From contig OX597826.1 in NCBI GenBank assembly GCA_951406725.2, positions 73,842,001-73,906,000 of the forward strand: a stretch of DNA of 64,000 nucleotides. Direction: 5' to 3'. Below are positions 9,733 through 61,400 of this stretch, one piece after another. The DNA comes from Octopus vulgaris. Its lineage: Eukaryota. A model generated the notes under the pieces. That model searched no databases. It was not told the DNA's origin and saw only the letters and a program-made list of their open reading frames with translations. Each line of letters opens with the position of its first letter. Positions within the stretch are counted from its first letter, which is position 1. Position numbers and translations under genes: made by a program.

Positions 9733-9932
9733 GCAGCACGGAGTTTTGTCAGTGAACAGGTTGCGGTCTCAAAGCGACGAAAATATTTTGACAAATTAAA
9801 TTTGAATGTTGAAGTGAATCTAACGGTTTTTGTGTGTTTCTTAAATGGCTTATAAACACCTTCCACGCTGCAATTGTTTTCGTTCCAGCACACGCTCCCA
9901 GATCAGGTCACTTGCTATGCAAGTACATCTCC
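9733..9932 (+). mobile_element. Probable Penelope-derived short element carrying the G3:C8 hammerhead
   Basis: CpG-richer 200-bp island starting at the hammerhead and ending in the ACTTGC-TAT-GCAAGT hairpin; boundaries approximate, no clear TSD. Confidence 0.45.
9745..9795 (+). ncRNA. Minimal type I hammerhead ribozyme, G3:C8 core variant
   Basis: Stem I TTTGTCA/TGACAAA; core GTGAACA+G; stem II GTTGC/GCGAC; GAA; palindromic stem III AATATT; U17. Confidence 0.75.
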
Positions 9933-10019
9933 AAATTATTTTTTGTTTAATCTAAAAAGTTGTCTCCTTGGCCTGTGCAGCTTCTCCCCAACAGACTTGT
10001 GAGTAATGTAGTTACAATT

Positions 10020-10330
10020 CCTCTTGAATATTTACCATTTCATGGCCGCAGGAAATACGAGTATGAGAGGAATTCCAGGAAGCTGGGGCTCTTGAGGAAG
10101 CACTGAATACAGTGGTTAATGCTGGGTGTGAAGTAATAAACATTAGTTGAAGAGGAGTGATGACACAAGTTGCTCTTAGTGGAAGTGTAGTGGTAGGGAA
10201 AGAAGAGAGAGGAGACAGAATGTTTGTGGATCAGACATTAGAGTATGTTGTTGGTAAATGACTTTGTTACAATCAAGTGGGGCTTTTTTTGATATACAGT
10301 CAAGGATATTTGTATGCAGAGCTGCAAAAC
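10020..10330 (-). mobile_element. Possible CR1/L2-type LINE 3' remnant
   Basis: Degenerate minus-strand sequence resembling the SF.PR...WNSL...FP end of ORF2. Confidence 0.35.
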
Positions 10331-10363
10331 CATTTTTCATGAGGGAACAATATTCCATTGGGA

Positions 10364-10744
10364 TACTCTTTTACTCTCTCTTGTACTTGTTTCAGTCATT
10401 TGACTGCGGCCATGCGGAAGCACCACCTTTAGTCGAGCAAATCGACCCCGGGACTTATTCTTTGTAAGCCCAGTACTTATTCTATCGGTCTCTATTGCTA
10501 AGTGATGGGGACGTAAACACACCAGCATCGGTTGTCAAGCAATGCTAGGGGGACAAACACACACACACATATACATATATACGACAGGCTTCTTTCAGTT
10601 TCCGTCTACCAAATCCACTCACAAGGCATTGGTCGGCCCGGGGCTATAGCAGAAGACACTTGCCCAAGATGCCACGCAGTGGGACTGAACCCGCAACCAT
10701 GTGGTTGGTTAGCAAGCTACTTACCACACAGCCACTCCTGCGCC
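10364..10744 (-). mobile_element. SINE family B
   Basis: Near-identical reverse complement of 33214-33613. Confidence 0.9.
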
Positions 10745-11548
10745 TAGAGGATAAGAGGGTTTAAAAAATTTTTTTTTCTGAAATATTTTCTGACTCTGAA
10801 GAGGGAGGCCAAGCTTTACTATGCAGGTGTGTAATGACAGAGAGAAAGAGAGAGAGAGATGTTCAGTGATGATGGGGTTTGACATTTGTAGTGGTTTCGA
10901 GGGTTCCAGCTGCTTGTTTCTTATAAGTGGGTGACAAAATTGTTTTCATGATATATGTTGTAACTTGGAAGTCTTCTGGATTGAAATACTGTTTGTCTGA
11001 TATTGTTATGTACACTTGAGAGAATATCCAAAGTATATCTTTTATGGTTTTTAAAAATTTTTTTATACTTGTTTCAGTCATTAGACTGTGGTCATGCTGG
11101 GGCAATTTCTTGAAAAAATTTTTTCGTTGAACAAATCAACCCCATTACTTAATTTTTCAAAGCCTGGTACTTATTCCATCAGTGTCTTTTGCCAAATCGC
11201 TAAGTCGTGGGGACATAAACACCAATACTGGTTGTCAAGTGGTGGTAGGGGGACAATGACATACACACATGGGCTTCCTTTCAGTTTCCATCTACCAAGT
11301 CCACTCACAAAGCTTTGGTTGTTTCAAGGCTATAGTAGACGACATTTGCCCAAGGTGCCACAGAGTGGGACTGAACCTGGAACCATGTGGTTGGGAACCA
11401 GGTTTGTAAAGGAATTGAAAAGATCTGCTTGTGAACAAATGGTGAATATTACTAGAAATGTCAGAAAAGATTGGATGGGAAGGATTCTGAAAAGTCTTTA
11501 ATCAGTGATGTTGTTGAAGCCCCAGGTCATCTTTCATTGTCTCTAGAT

Positions 11549-12030
11549 CAGTGGTTCCCAACCTTTTCACTTCCAAGGACCCCTTTTATTTAAATGAGTT
11601 TTCCCATGGACTTCTTTCAATATGTTTATCCTTATGTGTGTGTATTCTTTTTTTACTTATATTTGTTTGTCATTTTACAACGGCCATGCTGGAGCACTGC
11701 CTTTAGTCGAACAAAATGACCCCAGGATTTATTCTTTGTAAGCCTAGCACTTATACTATCGGTCTCTTTTGCCGAATGTCTAAGTCATGGGGACATAAAC
11801 ACACCAGCATCGGTTGTCAAATGATGGTGCGGGGACAAACACAGACACAAGCATACACACACACATACATGACAAGCTTCTTTCAGTTTCCGTCTACTAA
11901 ATCAACTCACAAGGCTTTGGTTGGCCTGAGGAGATAGTAGAAGACACTTATCCAAGGTGACACGCAGTGTGACTGAACCTGCAACCATGTGGTTGGTAAT
12001 CAAGCTACTTACCACATGGCCACTCCTGCG

Positions 12031-12085
<55 letters not shown>

Positions 12086-12235
12086 TCATCATCATCATCA
12101 TCATCGTTTAACATCTGCTTTCCATGCTAGCATGGGTTGGACGATTTTGACTGAGGGCTGGCGAACCAGATGGCTGCACCAGGCTCCAATCTTGATCTGG
12201 CAGAGTTTCTACAGCCGGATGCCCTTCCTAACGAG

Positions 12236-12267
<32 letters not shown>

Positions 12268-12333
12268 GAAATTTTGAATTTAGTTCATGGACCCCCAGTA
12301 CTACCTTTGCAGACCCCAGGTAGGGAACCACTG
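11549..12333. mobile_element. hAT (Charlie/Buster-like) MITE with nested SINEs
   Basis: TSD CTCTAGAT/GTCTAGAT, TIR CAGTGGTTCCC/GGGAACCACTG. Confidence 0.85.
12033..12105. repeat. (TA)n followed by (TCA)n microsatellite
   Basis: Direct reading. Confidence 0.95.
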
Positions 12334-12961
12334 GTCTAGATCTATGATCATAAATATTCCATCTGTTACAGTTTGTCTTTTTTTCTTCTTGAAACACAAA
12401 TGGATCACAATATCCAATATGCCTTCCTTTTAAGACATTTTAAACTTTTTACATATTCCATCAAAGCCTTTAATTTTTTTACATATAAAATACAGAAGCA
12501 AATTCTTCATAGGCTTATGGAATATTTATGTTATTGAATTTTTATTTCCCTCTTATACTATATAATTGTCAACAATAGTTGGGACTACACCATAGATCTT
12601 ATATTAAGGTTAGCTGATATTTTTAGCATCTCATGTGTCCACATAGTCTCTTTCATTGGTTTCGGTATATTAAAAGAATTATAGGCTATGGTGCTACAAT
12701 TGTCTGAATCATATCTTTCTCTTATACTGATGGTCAGTTATAATTTAATGGTGGACAAATTCTTTGTGCTCGTTAATTAAGCAATCCTCTTTCATTCTAA
12801 GAATTACAGTTTGCAGTGTATTTTTAATTGTCCTACCTAATGTTTAATTACTTATTAGTTTTATAGGTTTGCTTCTCTACATTCTGTCAGTATTTCGTCT
12901 TCATATTTAACTTCTTCTAAATCACTGTGTTCCCTCTTCTACAAAGTAACCAGTGCCTTAA

Positions 12962-13179
12962 CCCTTTCATTACCAACCCGGGCGAAACCAACTCTGGCTG
13001 AGTACAAATGTCTTATTTTCATAAGTTTTGAATTAAAATCTTCCACCAAACCTTAGACACAATTTGTTCTCCTAACACTAGCTTAACGATAACTCAGTTA
13101 TTTTACTAAATTCTTTGTTATATTTAAAGTATTTGATAGAAACAGAGAGGATCTCAAAATAAATACGGTAACGAATGGG
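12962..13179. mobile_element. piggyBac-type MITE family 2
   Basis: TTAA TSDs; colinear with 5916-6132. Confidence 0.88.
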
Positions 13180-14446
13180 TTAAGTCATCTGTTGTTACAA
13201 ACATTTCAAAATGCCCTTTGTTTCTTTTTGAAGCTCAAGTGATTTTTCCTTCACCTAGGGACATAATCAAGAGTGTTCTGGTTGATTTCATTAGTGTTGG
13301 CAGTGAGCATCCAACTGGCTTCCGTGCCAGTGGCACGTAAAAGGGCACCATTTGAGCGTGATCATTACCAACGTTGCCTTACTGGCACCTGTGCTGGTGG
13401 CATGTGTAAAAGGATTCGAGCGAGGTCATTGCCAGTACCGCCTGACTGGCCCCCGTGTTGGTGGCATGTAAAAAGCACCCACTACACTCTCGGAGTGGTT
13501 GGTGTTAGGAAGGGCATCCAGCTTTAGAAACTCTGCCAGATCAAGATTGGAGCCTGGTGCAGCCATCTGGTAAACATCTAGTGTTGCGAAGAAAATGATG
13601 ACGGCAATATTAAACCAAGAAGAAAGTTGGTGGAATGTTGGATGCATTCAGTTGATGCGAGGGGTAGAAAGCCTGATGTTTCAGACTTGTGCCGTGAGCA
13701 GAGAGTGGAAGATTACAAAAGTATCGTTTAGTTGGCCAGCACTGATAAGAAATGATCTTCTGCTGTCTGATAATGGGTTGGAACCTGAGACATTCAACTT
13801 TCTATTCCTCAAGGCAATTGAATTTACTAAAAGAGGTAGGGCATCCAGCCGTAGAAACATTGCCAGATTAGACTGGGCCTGGTGCAGCCTTCTGGCTTCC
13901 CAGACCCCAGTTGAACCGTCCAACCCATGCCAGCATGGAAAGCGGATGCTAAACGATGATGATGATGTGAATGAGTACTTTCGTTATTAGCAGTTAATTG
14001 TGAAAGTGAGGCTAAGTTGTGTGATTGTTTATTTTTAGAATGACAATTTTTAGGGTAAGCCTGAGAGGCTGGATCTGGCCGTTTGAACATAAAACAGGTA
14101 GAATATTTGGACCAAATATAGTAAGTTTAAATGCTAAAGGGTTAAAGAACTATCTCTCAGTCATCATCATCATCAAACATTTGTTTTCCATGCTGGCATG
14201 AGTTGGAGAGCTTGAATGGAGCTGGCCAGCCAGAGAGCTGCATCGGTTTCCATCTTTCTGTTTTGGCATGGTTTCTATTTCTTAATGCCAATCACTCTAC
14301 AGAGTGCACTCAGTGCTTTTCATGTGGCACCAGCATGGGTGCTTTATATGTGACCACTAGTATGGATGCTTTCTACATGGAACCAGCACCCACAAGCTCC
14401 ATGGCATTTAAACAATAATAATACATTAGAAAACTAAACCTTACAT

Positions 14447-14647
14447 CAGTGCTTTTCAAACTTTTTGCTGGAGCGGAACCCCAAGGAAACATTCCACTGG
14501 CTCACGGAACCCCTGTGCAATAATTTAATAGTCTTATGCACACCTATCTGCACAGGAGAATTAAAAATTACTGCCGATTTTAGCAGTTTTGTAAGTTCTT
14601 GCGGAACCTCTGGACTGTGCTGGCAGAACCCTGGTTGAAAACCACTG
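14447..14647. mobile_element. hAT MITE
   Basis: Perfect 8-bp TSD CCTTACAT; TIR CAGTGCTTTTCAA/TTGAAAACCACTG. Confidence 0.92.
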
Positions 14648-16640
14648 CCTTACATATAGGAGAACATGGAATTGGAAACAATGAAAAGTTCATATAATGC
14701 ACTCCTCAAGATGATGTGAGTTTTGAACTGATGCTGGTGATAATAATATAACTTACTTTATACAATTTACTGATCTCAGCAGTTAACTAATTTTATCTTC
14801 TTCAAATTCTAATGTTCTGGCTTTTGTTTTATAAAAGATAAAAATATAAATATCATTCATTGTCAAACATAAAATATCCAATCTGTTTCAAGATGCAAAA
14901 CCTCATAAAGTAGATGACAAGGAAAGGAAAAACAACAAAAGATCTGGATTCAGCCTCTGCAAACATAGGCAGAATGAATGTGAAATGATGATGTAATTAT
15001 ATTTGTTGATGAAATCATCAATTATGTATAAAGTGTGCACATGCACATAAATGATTAATTTGTATAACAGCTAAATCAAGGGTGTCAGATTTCTTTGTCT
15101 TTGCAGGCTGGATTGAAGCATAAATAAGACTGTATGGGTTGGGTAGAGACAATTATTCCTCAAAGATCCTATTCGTAATCTAGGCCAAAATAAATAGGCA
15201 TAGGGGCCGATGTGAAATAATAAATTTATTAGCAGTAAATGAATGAAAGAAAGAAAGAGGTGTTAGCAAAGTTTATATGCAGAGATGTACAGGGACAAAT
15301 TTATCGACTGGTGTAATATATATTGGCCTGTTTAGTCTTTAGGGCAGTGGTTCTTCTCTCAAGGATACATGTGGCCCTCAAGCATCCTTCCAACAGCCCT
15401 TGATGGTCTTCCCTCTTATTATCATCATTTAATGTCCATTTTCCATGCTGACATAGGTTGGATAGTTTGGCAAGTGCTGACCAACTGAAGGGCTGTTCAG
15501 GCACCATGTCTGTTTTGGCATGGTTTCTACAGCTGGATGCCCTTCTTAACACCAACCACTTTTCAGAGTGTACTGGCTGCTTTACACAGCACTGGCATGG
15601 GCTTTTTTTGCCCGGCACCAGCACTCACGAGTCTGCAAGATTAAAGATGCTCAGCTGGAGAGGGTTGCAGGAGCAACCTCACTTTTACTTAGCTTGACAT
15701 GTCTTTTCAAGCACAGCAAACCACCAGGAGGAGTCTTGGTCCCCTGTCATCCTCCCCACTCTAAGTCCCAATATAATAAATTTTAACCTTGATTGACTTG
15801 TGTTTTACTTTTTTGGGGGTGTAGTCTCTAAAAACATCCAGGTTTTGGATCTGGCCTGGATATAGAAAAGTTTAAGGAACACTGCTTTAGAGTGTGAATG
15901 GAAATAGAGATTTTGGAAATGAATTCATACAGATCTTGAGAAAACCATTGATTGATAGAAAACTTGCACTGTTTCAGCTGCAAATCTTTTCAGTATCATT
16001 CCTATTAAGGCAGTGAACTGGCAGAAATGTTAGCATGCCAGGCAAAATGCTTAGCAGTATTTCGTCTATCTTTACGTTCCGAGTTCAAATTCTGCCGAGG
16101 TCAACTTTGCCTTTCATCCTTTCAAGGTCGATAAATTAAGTACCAGTTGCATACAGGGGTCGATCTAATCGACTGGTCCCCTCCTCAACAATTTCAAGCC
16201 TTGTGCCTAGGATAGAAAAGAATATCATTCATATTACTAAAACCCATTTGGACAAATGTATGTGTAAATTAGGAAACAATGATATTTTTGGGGGCTTGGT
16301 GTGTACATAGACAAAATGAAGGGAAATAGGACACATCTTTTAGTAAATGGATTTATAAGTTTTTTTTTTATTGGATGAGATAAATGATTCACTGAGGTGT
16401 ATTGTTCTGACTAATTGGGACTGGTTGTTACTGTACTTGATAGAATATTTAAGAAATTAAAATAAATTTTTTTACAAGATTGTTGTTGCTGAGCTAGATC
16501 ATCTTTAAGAGATTGGGACAAAGCAGTTTGATCTGCTCCCAGCGGTTTGAAACTACTAAACATTCACTTCTGAACTGTATGGTTTTAGAAAATTACTTTG
16601 TAAATCTCACAACGAAAGATATTCAGCAACAGTACTTTGG

Positions 16641-16873
16641 AGTAAAGATTGTTTGCCAACATAACATGGTAGTCCTGGTTCAGGACGAATGTTGCTATAA
16701 TTTAGCCCCGGGAGACATCGTCTCCAGCTGGCTGTACGATTCCCTTGTTCGAAAATATAAGGATACAGATCGTGTTATATAGCCATCTGGAGACAATGTC
16801 TCCTGGGGCTAAATTACAGCAACATTCATCCTAAACCAGGACTGCCATGTTATGTTGGCAAACAATCTGTACT
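16641..16873. mobile_element. Foldback MITE with ~95-bp inverted arms
   Basis: 16641-16736 is the reverse complement of 16778-16873; right end ...ACTG TA is pogo/Tigger-like. Confidence 0.8.
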
Positions 16874-19221
16874 GTATAGTTTTAGTTTGACATATAGAAA
16901 TACAAAGTGAAGATTATTGAGGAAATTTTCTGCCTTGTTTTTAAAATGCCAGACATTGCCAATGGATAGATTTATTCTGCTTTTTTCTTCAGTTTTAAAT
17001 ATTCTTTTGTTTATCTGAGTATTTGACTAACCCTTTTCTTATATTTCTGTTGAAATACATTATCTTTCAATGAATTTGAAAATAATGATAAAGTTAGTAT
17101 GTAAAATAGCCTTGTCATTATTAAACCTGAGTTTAGAATTAAAATCAATGCTGGGCAAAATGTTTAATGGCGTTTCATCTGTCTTTATGTTCTGAGTTCA
17201 AATTCTGCTGAGGTCAACTCTGCCTTTCATGCTTTCAGGGTTGATAAAATAAGTACCAGTTGAGTACTAGGTTGGGGTAATTGACTGACACCCACCTTCT
17301 AACTTGCTGGCTTTGTTCCACAGTTTGAAACCAATAATGGAAGGTAGATTAGTTTAAGAAAAAAGTGTGATACAAACTTTTTAAAAGTTTAAAAGGTTTT
17401 TGTATCACAGAACTAAGAGCATTTTCAGGTGGGTTGGTATCGAAAAGGTTAATAAAGGAAAAAATGTTAATTTGAAGATACAGAAATATTCTATAAGCAT
17501 GCAGTAATTATGTATCATTTAAAAGTTTATCAAGTATCCACATACTGAAATAATACTGTTACATTAACTAAATTTTACCTAATTATTGCAGTTAATTTTA
17601 AAAAATCAAATATTTGTAGAGGGTTAGTAAAAAAAGAAACTGCTGGTGTTTGGAAAATAAATCCAAAATGAACAGTTTTGTATCATAGTCCAGGTACAGT
17701 TTCAGTAGGATGATGTCAAAAGGGTTTCATAGTTACTTGGATGTCTGGACATACAGTGATATGCTTTCTTTAGGGATCGATTTCTTTTAGTGTCATCATC
17801 TGATATAAACCTAATTTGTTTTACTTAGTATCTTAGTAAAAATTCATCCCAAGGCTTCTGATACTATAAATCCTCTTTGTTTGGCATGTATTTGATATAA
17901 ACGAACTGTTTGCAGCCGCCATAATGTCCATATTTCTATGCTTGCGTGGCTCAGACAGAATTCAGATTTTTCTGTTGCCAGATAACCATCTTCTTGCAGA
18001 AGATTGAAAACAAAGGACACTGCTTGTATTGCAATGATGCTCAAACTGTTGTGTGACGTCAAGACATGTACACACAAATGCAAATATAACCACATGCATA
18101 CACATGTGGTCTTCTTTCAGTTTTTGCCTACCAAATCCATTCAAAAGGATTTAGTTGGCTTCGGCCACACATAATAGAAAGTACTTACTTACCCAAAGTG
18201 CTGTACAGGATCACTGATCTTGAGACTACATATTAGGATGTGAACTCCTTCAACACACAGCTATTCCTGTGCCTCGTATCATCATCGTTTAACGTCCGTT
18301 TTCCGTGCTAGCAAGGGTTGGACAGTTCAACCGGGGTCTGGGAAGCCAGGAGGCTGCACCAGGCTCCAGTCTGATCTGGCAGTGTTTCTACAGCTGGATG
18401 CCCTTCCTAACGCCAACCACTCCATGAGTGTAGTGGGTGCTTTTTACCTGCCACCGGCACAGGTGCCAGGGGAGTCTGGCAGTGGCCACGATCAGTTGGT
18501 GCTTTTTATGAATTAAAAAATTAATCTCTGGTGGATAAATTCACTGCATTTCAAGCTGCATTATAACAACCATTTTATCATTTCTTCCATTTCATCTGAT
18601 CATTTGAAGTGTGTATTGAGATAGCCCCACTTCTGTATAATTTCTTTACACACTAATCCTTCCTCACAGCTATTAAATCGTCAGTCACCAAGGTTTTTTT
18701 CTTAAGATTATCATTGTTGAAACAACACTCAATATTTAGTTACTGAACATTGAATTTTACATGATTTAATCAAACTGTTCTGAGAAGTAGTTCCATAATT
18801 TACCCCACAAAATAGTATATGACATATATATATTTGTTTAAATAATCTAGCCATCTCCGAACAGCTTGCTCACTGAATCCAACTTAATACTTAAAAAAAA
18901 AAAAGCCCATTAATGTAATGAAAGTATTGTTAAAACTGTTAAATTTTTTATATTTAACAGCTTCGTTGACAGGTAATGCAATAAACCATTAAGTTTTTCA
19001 TTTAAAAAAAAAATCATGTTTTCATCTCTCAAAGCAAGCACACATGCACATGAAGAGACATGCATGCATGTATGCACACACATGCAAGTGAGTACACATG
19101 CACATAGTTATTCAATTCTTTTCCTTTCTCTCTCCAGGTGTTATCCGTCTCCATGGTTGGACTGTGGATAACATAGATTCTTACATTAACAACTTCAAGT
19201 ACTTCTAACTAGTACTTAAAG

Positions 19222-19233
19222 ATGTCAACTGCT
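19222..19233 (+). CDS. ATRX: ATRX coding exon 1 (MSTA); exon spans 19138-19233 including 5' UTR
   Basis: Strong acceptor ttcctttctctctccag|19138, aagATG with in-frame upstream stops, donor gct|gtaagt; phase 0 fits the next exon. Confidence 0.6.
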
Positions 19234-28200: not shown

Positions 28201-31200
28201 ATATGAATCTTTATTTTGTAAATGACACGGTAGGGGGTTGGTTTGAGGGGCCATATTTGGTTGGTTTGAATATAAAGCAAATTGATTATTTGGGTCACAT
28301 GCGGTCAGCTTAAATGCTAAATGGGTAATATCTTTGCAGTAGACCATTAATTTGCATTTTCTTTCTTTTTTCGTTGCAGGTTCTGAAAAGTGGAAATGTT
28401 ATGTTTGTGATCCTCCCAAAATAAAAGCACTAGTTGTACAGTGTAATGAGGTTTATGAATTATTGGAGGAAGAACGCAAGCGAGATAACCTAATGCAGAT
28501 CAAACAAGTCAAAGCTGAAGAGAAGCAGGCATCTTCCAGTAAAAAAATTGCTGCTACGTCTGTTATTCCAATTTGTGATGAAAGGATGAACATCACTGCA
28601 AAAACCCTTGACACTGTTATTGAAAAGCTACTGGTGGCCACAACTTCTATGACTTTGATGCTAAACACATTAAAATGTGATCTGAAAGAAGCTGAAAATG
28701 TCTCAGACCCTACTGCTGCTGCTGCTGCCGCCGCCACCGGTGATAAGCAAACTGAAAGAGACCAGGGTGTGGTGAAATTAAAGAAAGGTCTTGTGAAATA
28801 TTTCCTGGCTCTAAAAGAGACTCTGTTTGCCTCTGAGGTGAAGGAGGAGAAAGTGGAGAAGAAATCCAATACTTCACTGGGGTCAGATAAGAAATCAGGG
28901 ACGAAGAATCTGAGTGGCAAAGAAAGAGGAAAGGTCGAGAAGAAACAGTCTAAAAGTAAAACTTATTCCAGCGATGAAGATTTCAAGACTTCGAAAAAAG
29001 AAAATGAAACTGAGAAACACAAAGATTTTTCATCTCAAAGTAAAGGGAAAAATGCTTCTAAAGTAAATAATATTTCCAACTCAGTTATCTCTGTCTCAAA
29101 TGATGAAGATGACGACGACGATGATGATGATGATATCGAGTATCTTGGTGAGAGTAAGTTGAGCAATGTGTCTGATAATGACAAAGACAGCAGGGAAAAA
29201 TCCGTTAAAAGAGAAAAATCCGAAGACCAGAATTCAGAAAAAGATTGGAATCTTTTGAAACAAGAAAATAAGGTCTCGCCTCAAAAGAATTCCAATAATC
29301 TTGCCGAGAAGTCCTTGGAAGATCAAGATTTATCTGATGATGGAATGAAAGCAATGGATGAGGATGAAGAGGAGAAGGTGAAGAAGAAGGACAGTAGAGA
29401 AGAGGAAAGAACTCCCAAGAAAAGAGAGAAGAATGAGGAGCGGGGTGGAAGAAAGAAGGAAAAAGAATCAGAAAGATTGTCAAAGAAAAAATCTAACGAT
29501 AAATCAGAAAGATGTGTTAGAAAGAGAGATGAGGAGAAAGTTTCATTGAAGGACAAGGCTAATGAAAAATCACCAAAGAAATCTGAGAAAAATGAAGTGA
29601 AATTTTCCAAATCAAACAATAAAGTGGATGGGGTGAAAAAAGAGGAAGATGATGATAGTGATTTGTCTGTTGATGATATTCCATTGATTAAGCGCTCCCA
29701 GAAAACAGAGAAGAAAAGTACAGATGTGAAAGTGGAACGCAAGAAGAAATCAGGTAAAGATGTTAAAAGTGAATCAGAGAAGAAATCAAGTGTCAGTATT
29801 AAAAGTGAGAGAACTGCAGGTAAAATGGACATTGACAGTGACGACATTGCCGAACCTGTCAGTAACCATTCTGACAGTTTCCTCAGCACCAAACAGATAC
29901 CTGATCCCGAGAATGCTGCTGCACAACTGTCTCTTTTGATGGAAATGGCAAATGAGATATCAAAGAATCAGGGCAACGACTCTGATGACAATAACAACAA
30001 CAACAACAATAACAACAACGACGGTTACGATCATGATGAAGAGGATAATGGATTTACTTATAGCAATGAAGAAGATGATAACGATGAGGATAGTTCTACT
30101 GCTGCTCAAAAAGTAGATTCTGAAAACATAAAATCTGCTGCAGATGGCAACCTCTCTAATTCCTTTGGAAACCGATTCCATGAGAGTGATAATGCCAGTT
30201 TTGCAAATGGTAATAGCATTGATGTTTCCAAGAAAACTGCATCAAGTAAAAATACCCCCAAAAAACAGAGTAATACCGGTGCTACAGAGTCTGATCATGA
30301 ACCTTGTGAATCTGCAGGTGAGAAGAAACGCAGGCGGTCAGACAGGAGGAAATCTTCAGGTGGGAAAGACAAGAATAACGAGAAAGAGCGTAATAACGAG
30401 TCGGATGAAAACAATCCTGTGGATGACAGAAACGAGTCTGACAGTAACAGGAATCAGCCAAACGACCAGAAGAAGGACGACAGCTCTGAATCTGAGAAGG
30501 AAAAGGAGAAGACCGACAATGATGACGACAGTGACAGCAAGTTGACCGTCAAAGCCAAGAAGCAGAAAGAAGCGAAGAAACAAAAAGAAACGAAAAAAAC
30601 GAAAGATAAAAAGACTATCAAACAAGAAAAAGATATCAAAACTGAGACGAATGATTCTAACGATGAAGACGAGAGTAAGATGGGTAAAGAGAAATGTAAG
30701 GAGACTACTGACGATGACAAGCAGCTAGCTGCTGCGAATAGTGCTTCTGACAGTGATTCATCAGATTCCAGCGATGACAGTGATCTTTACACTCGCAAGA
30801 AACGCCGAAGTAGGAAAACCAAGATCAAAAAAGGTTAGTCATTGCTGCTACATGGTCATCTTGCAGTTTTTTTTATTACTAACACTATTGCAGACAAACT
30901 TTCTATTTTTACTGTTAGGTTTGGCCTTTTTTTTTTTTATATCAGTTTTACAACACTGTGATTTAGAATATTAGCAGACTTAAAAGTTTGAAGAACACAG
31001 AAAAACATTTTTGTACTGTTAATTTAAACACTGATTTTAGTGGGACTGGTACCTGTGTCCATGCATGGCACATAAAAAAAACAAAAAAAAAAAACACCAT
31101 CCGAGCGTGGCCATTCGCCAGCCTCGTCTGGCACCTGTGTCAGTGGCACATAAAAAACACCATCCGAGTGTGGCCGTTCGCCAGCTTCTTCTGGCACCTG

Positions 31201-34200
31201 TGTCGGTGGCACGTAAAAAGCACCCACTACACTCATGGAGTGGTTGGCTTTAGGAAGGGCATCCAGCTGTAGAAACACTGCCAGATCTGACTGGCCTGGT
31301 ACAGCCTTCGGGCTTCCCAGACCCCAGTTGAACCGTCCAACCCATGCTAGCATGGAAAACGGACGTTAAACGATGATGATGATGTACTGATATAAGTGTG
31401 TTGATGTATTTGGTGAGAAAAGATGTCAGGTCACCAATTTTATTGTTGATGTAGTCGTTAAACTGAAAATGTTGTGATACAGATGATGGTAATGAATACA
31501 AACAAGTTGATGAAACAAAAGATATCTCCAACATCAAAATTCTTTTATAAAGCTGATAATTAACTGTATTTGAATGTACCCAGAGAAATGTATAATGAAA
31601 TTGAGAATTTAAAGATAGCGTAGTCAAACAGCTATAGGAATAAATTTAAGTTTGTCATCACATAATGTTGTGACTGGGTATGTGTCTGTGTGAGCAACTG
31701 AATTATGTGTACTCTATGTATTTATATGAATTGTATATCCTTTAACTGCTTATGTATGACAGTGTTACATAGATTAATGTATGTAAGAGTAAAAGAAATT
31801 TGAGAGAATCTTACATATGGACCAGGCTGAATGGTCTGAAACCACAATCGAACCAAAAGCTTATATTACCTCACAGTGAAACCTATAGAATGTTCCTTGA
31901 GTAATTTCGTGCGAAAGCTAAAACAGTTCCTTTGAGGTTTGCCAATTTCTATCAAGAACTTTTATTAAATGCGATTGGCTGTAATATATATGTTTCTTTA
32001 TTACCCACAAGGGGCTAAACATAGAGGGGACAGACAAGGACAAACGGATTAAGTTGATTACATCAAGCCCAGTGCGTACTTAATTTATTGACCCCCCCCC
32101 CCAAGGATGAAAGGCAGAGTTGACCTTGGCAGAATTTGAACTTAGAACGTAATGGCAGGCGAAATACGGCTATGCATTTCACCTGGCGTGCTAACGCTTC
32201 TGCCAGCTCGCCGCCTTATTGGCTGTAATATATATGTTTCTTTGTTACCCACAAGGGGCTAAACATAGAGGGGACAAACAAGGACAGACAAACGGATTAA
32301 GTTGATTACATCAACCCCAGTGCGTACTTAATTTATCGGGACCCCCCCCACACACCAAAGGATGAAATGCAGAGTTGACCTCGGCAGAATTTGAACTTAG
32401 AACGTAACGGCAGGCGAAATACGGCTATGCATTTCACCTGGTGTGCTAACGTTTCTGCCAGCTCGCCGCCTTATTGGCTGTAATATATATCGGTGTGTTG
32501 GTTAACTGTGTGGGTGTTTATTGCTAACTTTTATAAAATTTACCAAATATTGTTATATCAATGAAATGCAGATTAAAATTCAGAATTGCAGTAAGATCAA
32601 GTCTGGCGAGCAATCAATGTAATTATGTAGTAATTTGATCCAAGTGGGAAACAATATATTCGTTATACTTGCTATATTTTCTCCTGGGTGTGGGTATGAT
32701 AAAGCTGGTATCATGTATTATTTATGTCTTACCTCTGACTTATTTTATCTAATGCCTCAAAACCTTATTGGACTCTGTAGCAACAACTTTCTGTTTGGTG
32801 TTTATGTAATATAAACTAGTCCCTTTTTTCTCTTTAGAGGAGAAAGGAACTCCAGTGAAAGGACAAAGAAAAACCAGGGAATCGTCTGCCAATGAGAAAA
32901 ACAAGAAAGGAGATGAAGACAATGTAAAGAAACGAGTCACCCGGAGTCGATCCGGGGCATCCGCAAATAAAGATACCAAAGCGAAAGAGAAAGGACAGCA
33001 TTCAGATTCCTCCAACTACGATTCTGAGCTGGAGAAAGAAATCAATAAATTGTCTCAGAAAGTTACTGTAAAGAAGTCGGGAGAAAGAAGAAAGAGAGGA
33101 CCAAACAAAACGAAGAGAAAGAGAAATGTCAAGAAAGGTTTGTATCAATGTCGTTCAACCTTTTGTTTGTGTGGTGTGCATTGATTGTAGGTGTTGTGTT
33201 AGCATGTGCTGTAGGCGCAGGAGTGGCTGTGTGGTAAGTAGCTTGCGAACCAACCACATGGTTCCAGGTTCAGTCCCACTGCCTGGCATCTTGGGCAAGT
33301 GTCTTCTGCTATAGCCCCGGGCCGACCAATGCCTTGTGAGTGGATTTGGTAGACAGAAACTGAAAGAAGCCCTGTCGTATATATGTATATATATATATAT
33401 AAGTATGTGTGTCTGTGTTTGTCCCCCTAGCATTGCTTGACAACCGATGCTGGTGTGTTTACGTCCCCGTCACTTAGCGGTTCGGCAAAAGGGACCGATA
33501 GAATAAGTACTGGGCTTACAAAGAATAAGTCCCGGGGTCGATTTGCTTGACTAAAGGTGGTGCTCCAGCATGGCCGCAGTCAAATGACTGAAACGAGTAA
33601 AAGAGTAAGAGTATACCTTTATTGACTTCATTGTTCTTTTTTGTTGTTTTTTTTACAGCTAATGCCGGAGAAAACAATGCAGATGTATCATTTTCTGATT
33701 CCTCTCAAGAGTCTGAGCAGTCTTCAGATGAAGAAAAGTGTGTCAAAGAAGTTAGTAATTAACCTTATTTAAATTTCTTTTTAGAATAGTTAGAAAGTTA
33801 TATTATTTTGAAAGAAATTCTTGTCAGATTTCAAAATAGAAAGAAACAAATGTCTCTTTGATATATTTACCCTTTTGATACTTAACCACCCATGGTCACC
33901 CTTAATTTAGAGACTATATTTACTATATTCCTCATTATTTTAAAACTTAATTGAAAGAAAATTTCTGTATTTTAACAGAAATGTGGTATTTCACCTCATA
34001 ATTGGTAATCTTCTCTATTTAGCAAATTTTTGACCCTTTCAGTATTAAATTCTTCAGGTTTTGAAGCAAAAAAACACCCAGTATCATTTTTAACAATTAA
34101 TAAACTGTTTTCCCTCAAAATAATGTTGCAGCAATCTGAAAAGATGGGATTCAGGGGGAACAACATCAGGAAAGTAAGGTGGAGAAGAGAAAACATTTAC

Positions 34201-38841: not shown

Positions 38842-38885
<44 letters not shown>

Positions 38886-39092
38886 TATATATATATACAC
38901 ACACATATATTACGAGTGGAGCTGGAATTATTTAAGGGATGAAACAAAGTTACCCCTTTCCCTATATATATATATATATAAATTAGAAAAAAAACACCTT
39001 TTATATAATATGTATATTGTATTTTGTGACATTTGATTTAGTATTTCTAAATTGAATTTTCCCCTGTAAGTTTGGAATAATATTCTCTCATA

Positions 39093-39165
<73 letters not shown>

Positions 39166-46428: not shown

Positions 46429-46460
<32 letters not shown>

Positions 46461-52400: not shown

Positions 52401-55400
52401 CTGCTTTTTATTGGTCTTTTATTTCTGAACGTGTTAATTCATTGAAAATGTGTCTGTATATTTATTTGTGTTAGTGAACAATTCCCATATGTATAAACTT
52501 TCTTCTAATTACAGCAGAACCTATAGTTGAAGTGAAAGAAGAGAAAGATTGTCCTATCAGTTCAGAATGGTGGTCAGAATATTTAAATGATTCAGATTGT
52601 CACAATTTAGATCTTTCTGGAAAACTGAAATTAACATTTGAAATCTTGAAAATGTGTGAAGAAATTGGTGATAAAGTGTAAGTATATGATGTTTTATTGA
52701 AATATTACAAAACCTGGACCTTGTTTTGTTTATAAATAGATTTTAAATTGTTATTCTTTCAACATAGGTTTTGCTTTAAAAACAAGGAGGACAAGAAAAG
52801 CCTGTTGGAAATTTGTTACTGTCTCTGCAGTTGGTCCCAACTTAGTAGGGACTATTTTTTGTTACACTTTAATGTTTACTATTTTATTTAAAGATGTTTG
52901 TAACTTTCTAACTGCATTGATTTGTTATGAAACTGAAATGGAAGATAATCTTTAAAAATAAATGTAAAGGCAATGTAGTTGCCATGAGAAACGGTAAAAA
53001 TACATCAGTGCTTTTGAGCAAATGTCCATTACGAAGAAATAAGAGACAGGAAAAATGGGTGGGGTGGGGGTGGAGAAACACCCAACTTTGTCATTCTCGA
53101 TAATCAAGACAATAATTGGTGAAGGATGTAGGTTAATGGATATGAGGTTTGTGAGGAGAATAGAAGTGGATTGTGAGCAGATGGATGAAGTGGGTAAGTA
53201 GATAGGTGGCTTCAAAGTAGTGGTGGTAAGATGGTGGAAGGAAGTGGGTAGCTTGTACTGGAGGATGCAGTTTATGTGGTGGGCAGATGGAGGATGGTTA
53301 GAAGTGTTGGACATTAGCTGAGTGTAAGACAGCTGCAGTCAGTGAAGTGTGCGCTTCAGTATGAGTGTGCTTGTTGGTAGGTACAGCAGTGTATATATAC
53401 ATAAACATGTTGGTGTGAGTGGAAGGGTCTTAGCTGGAATACATCCCTATCCATCACAGGAGGGAGCAAAAGAAGGAAGGAAAGGAATTAGACAAGATAA
53501 TGAAGTTATTGATATCAAATGGAAAACATTTTCCCATTTGGAAAGTTGTTTGCAAATTAGCTTAGTAACTGTGAGAGAGGTGTTGTTGGGTTAAACCGAA
53601 GATAGGAAAATGGCATTGGGGTAATTCACAGAGTTAAAATGGCATGTTACAGGTCTATTGAGCCCATGATTGTGAGGTGTATCACGCAGGTGCTCTTTAT
53701 ATTGGTCAACCAAGCAACATGTTGTCTTATCTATGTACAAACCATTGCAGAGTTGACATTTTTATACATTGACTTTACATTTGTTTTTATTCCCTTCTTC
53801 CATTGGATTATTCATTGCCTGACATGACCTACACAGCAGATTCCTTCCTTGGATCATATATTTTAATGAAAATCAAGTTGAGTCTTTTTCCCCTCAACTT
53901 CAACACGGTACCACATTTCAAAAAATGTTGGATGTGGTTTAAATTAAAATTAACTGTAGATCGTCAACTTTGATTATAGAAACTGTTTTGTTTCTATTTT
54001 AGGTTAGTTTTCAGCCAAAGTTTGTTATCATTAGATTTATTAGAAGATTTCCTGGAATACATTGATACTAATGCTCAGAAAGAACAAGAAGAAAAAGACA
54101 AAGAAAAGGAAAAAGAGAAAGAAAAAGAAACGTCTAGTAACAAGGTAAATGTATATATATGTATATATGTGTAGTAATTTTATTGACAGTTTCCTCAATA
54201 GACTGAATGCTAATTATTTGGGGTATCTGGCTACCAAATCTCTTTCTTGAAAAAATGCAGGGCTCAAGAGTGTGAGCATAGGATATATAGTAGAAGCAGT
54301 GGAGTAAACTGAGAAGAGACCCAGTTTTTGTGGTGATGGGATAATGTTTGTAGAGAATTGATGAATGTGGCTGGGTTTGTCAATCAGATTCAGTGTCTCT
54401 TCTTGAACAAAGTCTGTAGAATTGTGCATGCACACATGTGTATGCTTGTCTGTAGTGAGTGCATAGTTGCAGACAGGTGTAAGGCATATTTTGCTTGTAG
54501 AGGGTTAGCAGCCGTTTGGAACTAAGAATTTTTTATGCCCTTTGAAGTAGAAATTGCCACTTTGGTGATGCAATGTTGAAAGCTAGGTTTTCCAAGAGAA
54601 GTTAGAGGTGGTCAGACCTGACAATTGTTTAGAGTGTAATAGATTCAGTCGTGTTTTGTTGTTGTTATTGTTGTTGTTGTTGTTGCCTGCAATGTTGTTA
54701 AACTGTCTTTGGTCTGATGATGTTTTGTCTTTTATGTAAGTAACAACATTCAACAGAAAAAACATAAACATTTTTCATTTTAGAAAAAGAAAGATAAAGA
54801 GGAAAAAGAGACCTTTGGCAAGTCTTGGATCAAAGGTGCTGATTACTTTCGACTCGATGGTTCTACACCTGCTCACTATCGTAAGAGATGGGCTGAAGTT
54901 TTCAATGATACAGAAAATTATAGGTAAAGTTTTGACAGTTTTTCACCTTTAATTGCCTACTCCCTGCTCACCTTTTCTTTCTTTTATACTTTGACCTGTC
55001 TCCCTCTCTCATAACCCCCCCCCTGTCTTGTAGTCTTGCAATGCTGCATGGTGACCATGCCACTGCAAATGACACGAAAAACGCACGCAGTACCTACTGT
55101 GAATTGGTTGGTATTAGGAAGGGCATCTAGTTGTAGAAACCATGCCTAAGCAGACACTGGAGCACAGTGTAGTCCTTGGACCTTTTGGATATTGCCAAAC
55201 TGTCCAGCGTAAAACTTGGTTAAATGATGATGATGATGATATATACATGCAAACACCAATGGTGTATGGTTGTTATGAAAATTCTTATAACCAGAATTTC
55301 GTGTACTTCAGCTCCATTATTTTAACTGTTTTGTTATATTTCTAACTAAAATACACTCCTTATATCTTTCTGAAATAATCAAGAACTAAGACTAGTTTTG

Positions 55401-58400
55401 TGAAATAAACTATAGCTTTAAAAAATAGTCTTGTATGAGTTTATGGCTGAGTTTTTGTCTCGAAACTAATTGCAAGAAAATATTAAAAATGAGAAATTCT
55501 AAAAATTTTGTTGAAATATTCCCATATAAAATCAGTTGTAAGACGATATTTAGCTGAGCTTTGTGTGTTTGTGTAGATTGTACACATTGTTGAATGTAAA
55601 ATTGCATAAAATTATCGTGTTTGAAGAAAACTGCAAACTGAAGTTCACAAGTATATAAATACAGACTCATACACACACACAACACATACGTACGTGTATG
55701 ATGGGTTTCTTTCGGTTTCCATCTACCAAATCCACTCGAGGCTTTAGTCAGTCTGGGGTTATAGAAGACGCTTACCCCTGGTGCCAAGAAGAGGGACTGA
55801 ACCCAGTATGGTTAAGAAACAAACTTCTTAACCACACAGCTAGGCCAACACTGAATACAATTAAGCAGATGTCACTCACCTTAAACATAAATTAAAATCT
55901 TATGTAAAGAAGAAAAAATTATTTTCAGTAAGATTAATTCATAAAATACCTTATTTTTTAATTAAATTATATATATATATATATATATATATTGGCACCT
56001 GTGCCGGTGGCACGTGTAAAAAGATTCGAGCGAGGTCGTTGCCAGTGCCGCCTGAATGGCCCCCGTGCTGGTGGCACATAAAAAGCACCCACTACACTCT
56101 CGGAGTGGTTGGCGTTAGGAAGGGCATCAAGCTGTAGAAACTCTGCCAGATCAAGACTGGACCCTGGTGCAGCCATCTGGTTCGCCAGCCCTCAGTCAAA
56201 ATCGTCCAACCCATGCTAGCATGGAAAGCGGACGTTAAACAATGATGACATATATATATATATGCAAATTAAGTGATATTTCTGTTATAAAAAGTTGTAA
56301 ATCATCCCATTCTGTATAATGTCATGTACATTGTAAAATATTTCCAATTGATTGTCCATTGAGATCTTTCCTTTTCTGATGGCATACTTTACACGATATT
56401 TTGTGGCAACTTGTTGAATGAAGACTAGCTGAATTGAGAAAGACATCCCACCACTGGCAGCCTTTTGGTTTTCTTCCAACAGTTGTCATTTGGATGGCCA
56501 ATAACCGATGCATTGCAGTATCTACTTGGAACTGTAGCTTTTCACATGTTTTTGATCATTACATGATTCATAGCTTAACCCAGTCTAAACTAAACCTTTT
56601 TAGCTGATTTGGTCAGGATTAAGAGAGAGAGAGAGAGAGAGGGGGGGAGAATGCATAAAATTGATTTGCCTCTTCATGAGTGGTCACAAGCAAATTCAAG
56701 TGGTATTAGTTAAACTGGTAATCTTGGACCATTAAAAATTTCGGGTGGTATGGTAGCAGTGGTGATAACAAAAGCATTGATTGTTATTATATAATCAATA
56801 AATCATCATCTAATGTCCATTTTCCCAAGGTTGCATGGGTTGGGCGGTTTGCCAGGAGCTGAAGAGCTGTTCAGGCCCCCTGTCTGTTTTGTGCTGTTAT
56901 TGTATGATATATTGGGTCTTCATCATCATTTTATGTCCTGTTCTTTCCATGTTTGTATAAATTGGACTGGTTTTCTTCCACCATTGCATCTTTGTCACTT
57001 AAGGCCTTTGTCAGTTCCTTCATGAAGTGCAGTATCATAAGATCAGCTGTCTCTATTTCTTCCACTTGGTGTTTCTTTACCCATGTCCTGTTCCACACAA
57101 GTCTCATGTCCATACCAACACAGTCTTGTACACTCTTGTTACAGTACTTCTGATTTGTCTTAAAACCCAGTCTTCTCAAGCCCATTTGCATTTTTTCATT
57201 CATGTACACTAATATTGCATATCTGCCGGAGCTCTCATCACACTTTTCCAGCCTTCCATTTTCTATCATGCAATATTGCACTTATTACTTAACCCTTTCG
57301 TTACCGTATTTATTTTGAGATGCTCTGTATTTCTTTCAGTTACTTTAAATATAACAAAGAATTTAGTAAAATAACTTAGTCATCATTCAGCTAGTGTTAG
57401 GAACATAAATTGTGACTAAGGTTTGGTGGAAGATTTTTATTCAAAACTTATGAAAACAGGACATTTATACTCAGAGCCTGAGCCGGTTTCAGCCGGGTTG
57501 GTAACAAAAGGGTTAAACATCATAACAACCTGCTCTCTAATTGGAAAAAAGAATCTTTTTTTTTTCTTTTTTCGACAGAGCAGTAATAATTCCTAAAATT
57601 TTTCAATCCCATTTTCATTCTGGCTGCTATACTTTCAAAACATTTGTGTGTTTAAAAAAATATTTATTGCAATGTTTTCTTTCTTTAATATCAATGAAAA
57701 TTAATTCTTTGCAGAGCTCGGCTGTTTTTAATTTCCACTAAAGCTGGATCCCTTGGTATTAATCTTGTAGCTGCCAATAGAGTAATTATTTTTGATGCTT
57801 CCTGGAATCCCTCACATGACATCCAGTCAATTTTCCGAGTATATCGTTTTGGTCAAACAAAACCAGTATATATTTATCGTCTTGTGGCACAGGTCAGTTA
57901 ATAAGTATTAAGTACTTTTTATTGCTATTAGTAAATGCTGAATGAAATGTATTACCGTGACCATTTTACCTTATTAGTCACTAAAATACCCGTATTTGTA
58001 CTATTACAGGGAACAATGGAAGAGAAAATCTATGACAGGCAGGTGATCAAACAAGCCTTGTCTCAACGAGTCGTTGATGAACATCAAATTGAACGACATT
58101 TCACACAGGCAGATTTACAAGAACTTTATGTATTTAAACCCGAGAAAGTGGATGATCCTAATGCACCGGAAAGACCGACTCCTATTTTACCGAAGGTAGG
58201 AACTATCCTCTGACATACAGTTCTATATTTAAGAGATGAGGAATTATGTACATTATTTACGTTTGACGGGCATATGGCGTAGTGGTTAAGAGCGTGGGCT
58301 ACTAACCCCAAGATTCCGAGTTCGATTCCAGGCAGTGACCTGAATAATAATAACATGGAAAATACTTTAGGAATGAGAACCCATGTTTGAAATTTCCCCA

Positions 58401-61400
58401 AGACACCTGATGAAGGCTGGAGGGTTTATCAGCCGAAACATTGTGTTAACAACAAACAAGATGAGGACAAATATCTGTCAAATGTAAATAATGTAAATAA
58501 CGTATTCTCTGACATTGTGAATTATGTTCTGTTTATCATTTATTCTTTCACTTGTTTCAGTCATTTGACTGCATCCATGCTGCAGCACTTGAAGGATTTT
58601 AGTTGAACAAATCAACCCCAGGACTTATGCTTTTGAAGTCTAGTACTTATTCCATCAGCCTCTTTTGCCAAACTGCTAAGTTACAAGGATGTAAACACAT
58701 CAATACTGGTTGTCAAGCAGTGTTGGGAGGACAAACACAAACTCAGATATGTGTATATATTAATATATATATATATATATGACGGGCTTCTGTCAGTTTC
58801 TGTCAACCAAATCCACTCACAAGGCTTTTGTCTGCCCTCCCTGAGGCTATAATAGAAGACACTTGTCCAAGGTGTCATGCAGTGGGACTGAACTCGGAAC
58901 CATGTGGCTGGGAAGCAAGCTTCTTACCACATGATCATGCCTAAATAAGTGGTTCTCTACCAGGGTCCACATGACCCTTGGGGGTTCATATAAGATTTTG
59001 TTAAAATTATGTGCTATAAATTGCTTATACATCTATAATACATAAAATATTTTAATAGTTTTTGTTTATACAATTCCTAATAATTAATTCATAAATAAGT
59101 ATATAGGATTTCTGTTGTGTCTGGTGGGAGTCATTCTCTTTCACTGCCTTATAATTTAACACACTCACTGGTAAAATTTCCACTCATTTACTTATTTATT
59201 TTTCTAAAATTTTCATTGCGTCTTGCAACCTTTTTGACTATTGGAAAGGTTGCAAGATCCAATGAACATTTTTGAAAAATATATAAATGAGTGGAAATTT
59301 TTTCTGGTGAGTATGTTAAATTATAAGACACTGAAAGAGAATGATTCTACCCAGACACAGCAGGATATGTTTCAACACACGAACTCATATAAAGAATCTT
59401 GTAAACCAAATCCAAAAACCGAAATATATACGATTTTTTAAACGTTAAATGGCTAGTGGGGTCCAGTAGAGTAAAATAAATACGAAAGGGATCCTTAGAC
59501 AAAAAATGGTTGGAACCAATGTTCTAAATGAATGACAGTTGAAGTAGAGATCAAACTATATTGTATGAAGTTGGTGTGGATTATTGAAGCTGTTGGATTA
59601 GCTGAGTATTATGGTGATTTATTAATTAGCCTGGATTAAAGCATTTGACTTGTTTTCTCTGCAGGATCGTATGTTAGCTGAACTGTTACAAGAACAGAAG
59701 AAATGGATTGTGGCGTACCATGAACATGATTCTCTTTTGGAGGATCAGGAGGAGGAGAAGTTGACGGAAGAAGAACGAAAGACAGCCTGGGAAGAATTTG
59801 AAAATGAAAAGAAAGGCATTGTCCGAAGAAGTGAGTAACATTGTTAATAATCCCAATAGAAGCATCATCACAAGGCCTTGACATTTAGGGAGTGTTCGTT
59901 GCCAGCCTCGGCTGGCCCCGTGCCGGTGACACGTAAAAGCACCATCCGTTCGTGGCCGTTGTGCCAGCTCTGTCTGGCACCTGTGCAGGTGGCACGTAAA
60001 AAACACCCACTACACTCGCGGAGTGGTTGGCGTTAGGAAGCGCATCCAGCCGTAGAAACACTGCCAAATCTGACTGGGCCTGATGAAGCCTTCCGGCTTC
60101 ACAGACCCCAGTTAAACCGTCCAACCCATGCTAGCATGGAAAACGGACGCTAAATGATGATGATGATGATGATTGTTGATTATGTCTGTCTTACAATTTG
60201 ACTGGTGACTGATTTTATTAACCCTGAAGGGATGAAAGGCAAGGTTGACCGTGGCAGGGTTTGAACTCAGAACATAAAGAGCCGAAAGGAATGCTGCTAA
60301 GCATTTTAAATTGTTATTTTCCCCTGTCCAACAACTGGTGTGATGTTGTATAAAGAGTGCATTCATTTACGCATGATCAACTCAAAAAAAGTTAACTGTT
60401 TTCAGATATTTCTAAGCGGAATGCATTTCCAAGAAATTTCTAAAATAATTGTGTTTAGACTTATTTAATGTCAACTGTAATAGTATGAATAACATATTAG
60501 ACAATATATATAATAATATATTAAGACAATGACATGAGATAATGCAGGACCTCATTGTATTTTGGAAGTTGCATAAAATGTCTTTGATCTTAGGTCAGTG
60601 AGGATTTGTTTTGAGACTAAACAGTAAGGATAATACAGTTAACAAGAACAACATGACCTCCACCAAAACCATCAACTCGCAATTCACCTATTGTAGTTTA
60701 TTACTTAAACTTACATCGATTCCTCTGTGATGTTGCTTTGCATTTATAATAAAATAACAATAAAAAAAATGTATGTACATACAGTACTGTTTCTACTTTG
60801 AGGGTTTTCGCCTATCGCAGGGGTCTTTGGAATGTAACAGTTGTGATAATCGAGGGATTACTGTATATTTATAGTGTGACTTTTATGTCTGCTATAACCC
60901 ATAACTCGCAATAGTGGGATAAATATTCTTTGCTACTCGAGGCACAAGACCTGAAATTTTGGGGAAGGAGTCAGTTAATTACATCGACACCAGTATGCAA
61001 CTGGTACTTATTGACCCTGAAAGGATGAAAGGCAAAGCTGACCTTGGTGGAATTTGAACTTAGAATGTAGAGACAGAGGAAATACCTAATTTTTTACTAC
61101 CCACAAGGGGCTAAACAAGGACAGACTAACGGATTAAGTCAGTTATATCGACCCCAGTGCGTAACTGGTCCTTAATTTATCGACCCCAGTGCGTAACTAG
61201 TCCTTAATTTATTGACCCCGAAAGGATGAAAGGCAAAGTCGACCTCGGCGGAATTTGAACTCAGAACGTAGCGGCAGACGAAATACTGCTAAGCATTTCG
61301 CCTGGTGTGCTAACGCTTCTGCCAGCTTGCCACCTTAGTAATGGGATAAATACTGTATCAGCCTTCCACCACAAATTGCCAAATACTTCTGATTGGTTCC

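Follow-up and report, generated by a model that had tools for sequence, protein, structure and literature searches.

Minimal hammerhead ribozymes (min-HHRs) are a described component of the pseudo-long terminal repeats (pseudo-LTRs) of Penelope-like elements (PLEs). Min-HHRs from metazoan PLE pseudo-LTRs have an extra nucleotide, palindromes, U3-A8 variants and weak cleavage as dimers, and about 1,300 U3-A8 motifs were found in Schistosoma (Cervera & de la Peña 2014, PMC4209133); natural U3-A8 pairs and palindromic stems III were also described by Perreault (2011). In the Anolis Poseidon element PAc, reverse transcription starts internally, cleavage is protein-assisted and unprocessed RNA is the main substrate (PMC11167929). 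The transcript start of Drosophila virilis Penelope has been mapped within its pseudo-LTR (PMC2377424), and a CX2-5CxxC linker is given for the Neptune and Nematis clades (PMC8557442). Here we analyse three min-HHR families, A, B and C, represented in a 64,000-nucleotide (nt) stretch of Octopus vulgaris DNA (assembly GCA_951406725.2, contig OX597826.1, positions 73,842,001 to 73,906,000, forward strand; hereafter the window). The three motifs are very probably the 3' pseudo-LTR hammerheads of three protein-coding Penelope-like families, with the window copies being short insertions likely made from uncleaved, internally started RNA. The hammerhead class itself is already known; the unusual parts are a natural G3:C8 pair in one of two sister families (B) and a tRNA-like head in A.

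Hammerhead motifs in the window

Hammerhead B (9745..9795, forward strand) is intact, with a 7-bp stem I (UUUGUCA/UGACAAA), core GUGAACA at 9752-9758 (G3:C8), an extra G, a 5-bp stem II, GAA, stem III AAUAUU and a predicted cut after U17 at 9788. Hammerhead A (58402..58447, forward strand) has a 5-bp stem I, core CUGAUGA at 58407-58413 (C3:G8), an extra A, a 6-bp stem II, GAA, the tetranucleotide ACAU, in which the palindrome is broken, and a predicted cut after U17 at 58442. Family C is present as a forward pseudo-LTR copy (59234..59425, forward strand) and an inverted arm (59109..59233, reverse strand). The decayed hammerhead of the forward copy (59238-59274) has core UUGGAAA at 59241-59247 (family form UUGAAAA, U3:A8); it reads UUGGAAA / GAA CAUU U UUG and fails the core test (A6G, A15.1C). 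In the inverted arm, the core is interrupted at the inversion junction. Together the arms make a long inverted repeat that is predicted to fold as a single hairpin (-141.8 kcal/mol). A strict minimal-hammerhead descriptor matched only A and B over the window, with 0 matches in 30 dinucleotide shuffles; a loose descriptor gave 4 matches compared to a shuffle mean of 0.57. An Rfam scan of the window matched no hammerhead family at E<=10. The initial annotation, made from the window letters, had given all three motifs one architecture with a 5-bp stem II. B is exactly as described there and A shares the architecture apart from its longer stem II, while the C copy in the window has lost it through decay.

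Coding partners of the three families

The genome that was searched comprises 2.8 Gb in 227 contigs, and partners were reached by walking upstream from the motifs in long copies. Exact patterns, in each of which one upstream offset was limited to A/T, gave 1,912 matches for the A head, 5,574 for the B tail and 4,121 for the C core; these counts are lower bounds, and the reversed control gave 0 for all. Each of the three families is present in thousands of copies. In A, 21 of 28 loci (of 30 fetched) have a reading frame that stops 29 nt short of the tRNA-like head, and a reverse transcriptase (RT) YVDD motif lies further upstream in loci L154 and L174. A copies are old (about 75-89% alike) and their frames are broken, so that RT and the GIY-YIG endonuclease (EN) are seen only as broken frames; the A protein has no CX2-5CxxC linker (Penelope/Poseidon type). 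Of 30 loci from the endonuclease family of C, 17 have the hammerhead 513-718 nt downstream of the GIY-YIG match, and an RT-Zn-GIY-YIG frame extends over at least 665 amino acids (aa). One C locus (L254) reads, in order, inverted pseudo-LTR piece, truncated RT-Zn-GIY-YIG frame, microsatellite-rich untranslated region (UTR), hammerhead and tail. In B, an upstream UTR is common to 46 of 100 copies among the matches listed (by eye), RT/EN similarity occurs in 10 of 12 long-copy loci at 36-53% identity to the C protein (50.6% over 516 aa in L299, the longest frame) and the hammerhead follows the stop codon by 974-1117 nt in the two loci measured. The B GIY-YIG domain scores above the Pfam cut-off, and Atlas neighbours carry RVT_1, GIY-YIG and HTH_animal. 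Both B and C carry the CX2-5CxxC linker (Neptune/Nematis type); clade labels here, including Penelope/Poseidon for A, are assigned by motifs.

A search for RT/GIY-YIG partners had been proposed as a check on the motifs, and coding partners were found upstream of A, B and C. Assignment of the motifs to short-stem-III hammerheads of Penelope-like pseudo-LTRs is borne out. Their description as non-autonomous Penelope/retrozyme-like families is not, since each of the motifs forms the 3' end of an element that codes for RT plus GIY-YIG. The motifs had also been called unrelated in sequence, which fails for two of them: B and C align with 62 of 96 nt identical (E 8e-4), and their shared pattern has 10,133 exact genome matches (reversed control 0). 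Judged from proteins that are about 50% identical and from homologous pseudo-LTRs, B and C are sister families, so the idea of three unrelated origins is wrong.

Independent non-autonomous retrozyme or short interspersed nuclear element (SINE) families that borrow PLE machinery could also give copies that are mostly short and without an open reading frame (ORF), as are 30 of 40 for A and 54 of 100 for B (by eye) among the matches listed. This alternative is highly improbable. Among the same matches, 8 of 40 A copies and 46 of 100 B copies (by eye) show the short sequence continuing unbroken into a coding PLE, as is also seen in C; and no arrays of head-to-tail short units, as expected of tandem retrozymes, were noticed in the loci read, where no systematic search was made. 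Tandem Repeats Finder detected none at the three sites. Copies are dispersed, solo or inverted, and joined to coding PLEs, which is unlike tandem non-coding retrozymes.

Covariation and conservation of the fold

All three families have the catalytic core N3-UGA-N-N8-A ... GAAA ... UH with a paired 3:8, together with an extra nucleotide lying between 9 and 10.1 and a G10.1-C11.1 pair. The 3:8 pair covaries among families, as the initial annotation had claimed: it is C:G in 73 of 84 A copies, G:C in 69 of 73 B copies and U:A in 27 of 29 C copies anchored outside the core, although samples were largely chosen by similarity or core pattern and conservation is therefore overstated. A CUGANGA search would indeed miss B and C. 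Stem III palindromes are ACGU in A (38 of 74 copies; ACAU, 15, and AUGU, 10, are CpG-decay forms), AAUAUU in B (70 of 73) and AAUU in C (92 of 110). Two reconstructions made from the window copies thus hold for the families, namely the ACGU palindrome of A and the UUGAAAA core of C, which occurs in 76 of 110 copies. Four compensatory double changes separate B from C: 3:8, I.2 (CG vs UA), I.3 (UA vs CG) and II.3 (CG vs UA); pair I.4 is lost in C, which leaves a stem I of only 3 bp. These compensatory pairs imply that selection maintained the fold, including the 3:8 tertiary pair, during divergence of the families.

Over 816 kb of fetched DNA, the descriptor gave 70 matches in six families, 69 of which are Watson-Crick at 3:8, with 0 matches in 5 shuffles. 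Within families, non-CpG variation that marks subfamilies occurs at N7 (in A, U 59 and A 25 of 84), in loop 2 (8- and 9-nt forms in B) and as one U-A to U-G wobble. In a core-free, tail-anchored list of B copies, decay is scattered and U occurs at N7 in about 5 copies (by eye). We infer that inserted copies decay neutrally after insertion.

5' ends and the origin of short copies

The 5' edges of short copies are sharp and lie a short way upstream of the hammerhead in B and C, or at the tRNA-like unit in A. The 3' ends are fixed, and inverted 5' duplicates are frequent. B short copies begin at AGATGC, about 16 nt upstream of stem I, and C short copies begin near AGAGTC. A G precedes B short copies in 19 of 35 cases (one pair duplicate), against a background G frequency of 0.18; long copies have C or T at this position. 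This extra G occurs in 7 of 14 B short copies without an inversion and, by eye, in 33 of 54 in a larger listing. Among 100 tail-anchored B copies, only about 7 start within 4 nt of U17, at scattered positions, and most retain the whole hammerhead (by eye; the A/T filter on this list under-samples truncated copies by roughly a third). A sharp pile-up of copies that start at the cleavage site was looked for and not found. Because most copies keep the whole hammerhead, the inserted cDNAs probably came mostly from uncleaved RNA.

These features could be explained by a simple sequence of events. The transcript would start in the pseudo-LTR, and RT would begin copying internally, at the tail some 200-300 nt in. 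It would then continue as far as the RNA 5' end, where in B the extra G would likely be a copy of the cap, and would often fold back to give an inverted arm. The ribozyme would be slow, would need a same-family partner and probably an element protein, and would process only part of the tandem transcripts. B and C each have two preferred 3' ends about 55-60 nt apart, which suggests two RT initiation sites, and many copies abut (TA)n.

The 5' edge of B and C could instead be a splice acceptor (branch-point-like CTAAC, pyrimidine tract, YAG), with short copies made from spliced RNA with a tiny first exon. The sequence upstream of B reads CTAACTGTTACTTTCT(C/T)AG, and there is a published precedent in a D. 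virilis PLE intron that ends at hammerhead helix I. We consider this origin improbable, given that the short copies have in common no preceding exon sequence beyond a single G and that the C upstream region has no pyrimidine tract.

Dimer folding and cleavage

Dimers were scored by nearest-neighbour energy relative to stem II alone, with stems I and III both intermolecular in the double-hammerhead fold. Homodimers of the A and B family forms have energies of -5.2 and -7.8 kcal/mol, respectively. The six heterodimers among A to D are all unfavourable (+7.7 to +19.3 kcal/mol), with only 0-2 stem I pairs. The A copy in the window gives +3.9 kcal/mol as a homodimer. Under this model, dimerisation is predicted to be family-specific and cleavage to occur in pairs only. 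The predicted specificity would owe at least as much to stem I as to the palindromes, and C is predicted to need help to fold as a dimer.

Several observations weigh against an origin of the copies from internally started transcripts of elements with dimeric pseudo-LTR ribozymes. Homodimers of C and D are unfavourable (+7.5 and +5.2 kcal/mol). No complete, intact tandem unit with two pseudo-LTRs was found for A, B or C among the fetched loci. Twelve of the 19 extra-G cases lie at inversions, and splicing or junction microhomology could give the extra G instead; for C, represented by 2 short copies, the extra G was not confirmed. Many copies in the pair counts were picked because they resemble the window copy or match a core-fixing pattern, which inflates the apparent conservation. 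Three unstranded RNA runs from a related organism listed no pile-up of read ends at 58442, although such libraries would hardly show one; they are dominated by other repeat copies and are uninformative on cleavage or start sites.

If the motif were instead a fold that is bound by RT or marks its start, self-cleavage could be negligible in vivo. Retention of the uncut motif in most inserted copies and the energetically marginal C dimer would both agree with such a role, as would the Anolis PLE, in which hammerhead mutants had no effect on insertion in vitro and no RNA-seq reads ended at the cut site (PMC11167929). The 3:8 pair, which is important to the active site, has nevertheless been exchanged through a double, compensatory change, and six families all retain the letters of the catalytic core. 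A purely structural role is therefore unlikely, and pseudo-LTR ribozymes that cleave part of the RNA remain our preferred explanation.

A tRNA-like head in family A

The A copy in the window begins with a tRNA-like segment (58268..58342, forward strand) with an A-box-like motif (TGGCGTAGTGG, 58275-58285) and a B-box-like motif (GAGTTCGATTCC, 58318-58329). ARAGORN at default settings found no tRNA gene in the window or in 17 A loci. Relaxed settings gave 28 calls on 58 A heads, which were inconsistent, so no parent tRNA is named. Twenty-five of 30 head-anchored loci carry the hammerhead tail, and long copies make up 22 of 100 among the matches listed (by eye). In 40 copies among the matches listed, 30 of the 5' ends lie 0-7 nt upstream of the head, 0 at 8-19 nt and 2 at 20-40 nt, and 8 copies extend into the ORF. 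Short copies thus have a tRNA-like head at their 5' end, as SINEs do. A is not an independent non-coding element, given that the head lies 29 nt past the PLE stop codon in long copies, and a stand-alone tRNA-SINE was rejected, with the sequence upstream being the end of the PLE ORF.

The position of the 5' ends suggests that RNA polymerase III (Pol III) may start 13-14 nt ahead of the A box, which would yield SINE-like short copies. A test for absence of T4 terminators was not informative: 52 of 57 A copies are T4-free, which is not beyond chance (57% of shuffles are also T4-free). An alternative, to which we assign nearly an even chance, is that the pile-up of A 5' ends reflects RT stalling and self-priming at a GCCC-AC-GGGC hairpin, with the tRNA-like piece as a passenger in the 3' UTR. 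This hairpin spans the 5' edge exactly, 18 of 30 A short copies have a 5' inversion and the lack of T4 terminators is not significant. Set against stalling, the 30 of 40 clustered ends fall within an 8-nt interval 7-14 nt upstream of the A-box-like motif; the A- and B-box columns of the head are well kept across copies (column counts); and an RT able to get through stem II, which is stronger, would be only weakly impeded by a hairpin of 4-5 bp. It is possible, though we hold it tentatively and at somewhat less than an even chance, that a Penelope/Poseidon element captured a tRNA-derived Pol III promoter in its pseudo-LTR and spawns SINE-like, hammerhead-bearing short elements, beside which a natural G3:C8 became fixed in thousands of copies of one sister family. 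A second B-box/T-arm-like stretch (58378-58400; family form CCCAGGTTCGAAATTTCCCC) lies just upstream of the A hammerhead, and several hammerhead-anchored A copies begin near it.

Genomic setting and other Penelope-like elements

The B copy in the window is a solo pseudo-LTR of about 200 nt (9731..9932, forward strand) from a PLE of Neptune/Nematis type by its linker motif. The A copy (58268..58503, forward strand) consists of head, AAT repeat, hammerhead and tail, and represents the 3' UTR/pseudo-LTR of a Penelope/Poseidon-type PLE. An inverted 3'-tail piece (58217..58267, reverse strand) at its 5' junction is a PLE-type inversion, and the insertion is bounded by a likely 12-bp target-site duplication (58205..58216, forward strand, and 58504-58515, one mismatch). 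A and C copies both lie in a 1469-nt intron (58196..59664, forward strand) of an ATRX-like gene, where they are predicted to be inactive. The spliced junction occurs in all three RNA runs, and a flanking exon matches ATRX (E 3e-20). The gene (25537-63941, forward strand) contains motifs of ADD type (25.5-27.4 kb) and SNF2 motifs (41-58 kb), together with an 831-aa low-complexity exon at 28343-30838; from the B copy, the first ADD motif is some 16 kb downstream. The window also contains several abundant SINE-like repeat families (D4-D20) in both orientations and a 255-nt tandem duplication at 31974-32490.

Partners of A, B and C were not among the families recovered by a genome search with the Pfam GIY-YIG domain plus 20 further loci, and B fragments near ORFs of L149, L193 and L199 were judged to be chance neighbours rather than evidence of a B partner. 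The dominant PLE in that search, with many 781-aa open frames (L127-L150 and L193), has its own U3:A8 hammerhead (e.g., L149:2870-2910) with core UUGAUAA, no extra nucleotide and palindrome ACAUGU. Two more minimal hammerheads occur in one copy each, at L074:169 (forward strand; U3:A8, ACCGGU) and L190:661 (forward strand; C3:G8, ACUCGAGU). In two further GIY-YIG PLE families, one at L181, L183, L185, L186, L188, L190 and L192 and the other at L182, L184, L191, L195, L198 and L200, no hammerhead was matched by the descriptor over roughly 3 kb of downstream sequence; they may carry another core variant. Fragments at L199:990-1345 and L203:4968-5630 represent another GIY-YIG PLE type, Nematis-like by its motifs. 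A chimeric A insertion at L103:900-1500, in which the end of the ORF abuts internal RT sequence in the inverted arm, suggests template switching.

Significance and comparison with known systems

The B/C pair is a natural experiment: it proves phylogenetically that eukaryotic minimal hammerheads have the 3:8 tertiary pair, a G3:C8 form included. Surveys based on CUGANGA undercount PLE ribozymes; the dominant intact PLE here is likewise U3:A8. The sharp 5' edges point to a simple way in which the many solo pseudo-LTRs could arise. They also suggest that inserted RNA is seldom cut by the ribozyme, which bears on the role of PLE hammerheads. If the A head works as a Pol III promoter, it would show how a Penelope element can give rise to a SINE, one born from a PLE rather than from a long interspersed nuclear element.

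The motifs resemble published PLE min-HHRs (PMC4209133) in being type I with a short stem I, an extra nucleotide lying between 9 and 10.1, G10.1-C11.1 and a palindromic 15.2-16.2 segment, and in their pseudo-LTR location, the predominance of solo copies, the occurrence of inverted pairs, the presence of several families in one genome and a U3-A8 variant. They differ in that the accessible sections of that paper describe no G3:C8 pair and no tRNA-like unit, and the word "octopus" is absent from two of its supplement files. The short-stem-III hammerheads of Lünse, Weinberg & Breaker (2017), as portrayed in citing reviews, share the PLE association, palindromic loop III and dimer cleavage. As in EN+ PLE clades (PMC8557442), the octopus elements have a C-terminal GIY-YIG domain, 5' truncation and inverted 5' copies, with B and C carrying the linker and often lying beside (TA)n. 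A short copies join a promoter-like head to a hammerhead, as do the schistosome SM-alpha/Sj-alpha repeats and the non-LTR retrozymes. Those are tandem or stand-alone non-coding elements, whereas the A head is embedded in the 3' UTR of a coding PLE and the A copies are dispersed with PLE-type inversions. A literature search by title and abstract start found no PLE with a tRNA or Pol III head, with Repbase and Dfam outside its scope. In the accessible literature that was searched, to which Lünse 2017 and the repeat databases did not belong, the G3:C8 core was found only in engineered form. PAc (PMC11167929) is a close parallel, with a pseudo-LTR hammerhead and, as proposed for the octopus families, an internal RT start and uncleaved RNA as substrate. 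In PAc, the ORF starts inside the hammerhead. The engineered C3G/G8C double mutant of PAc partly rescues cleavage, whereas in octopus family B the G3:C8 pair is natural and fixed in thousands of copies.

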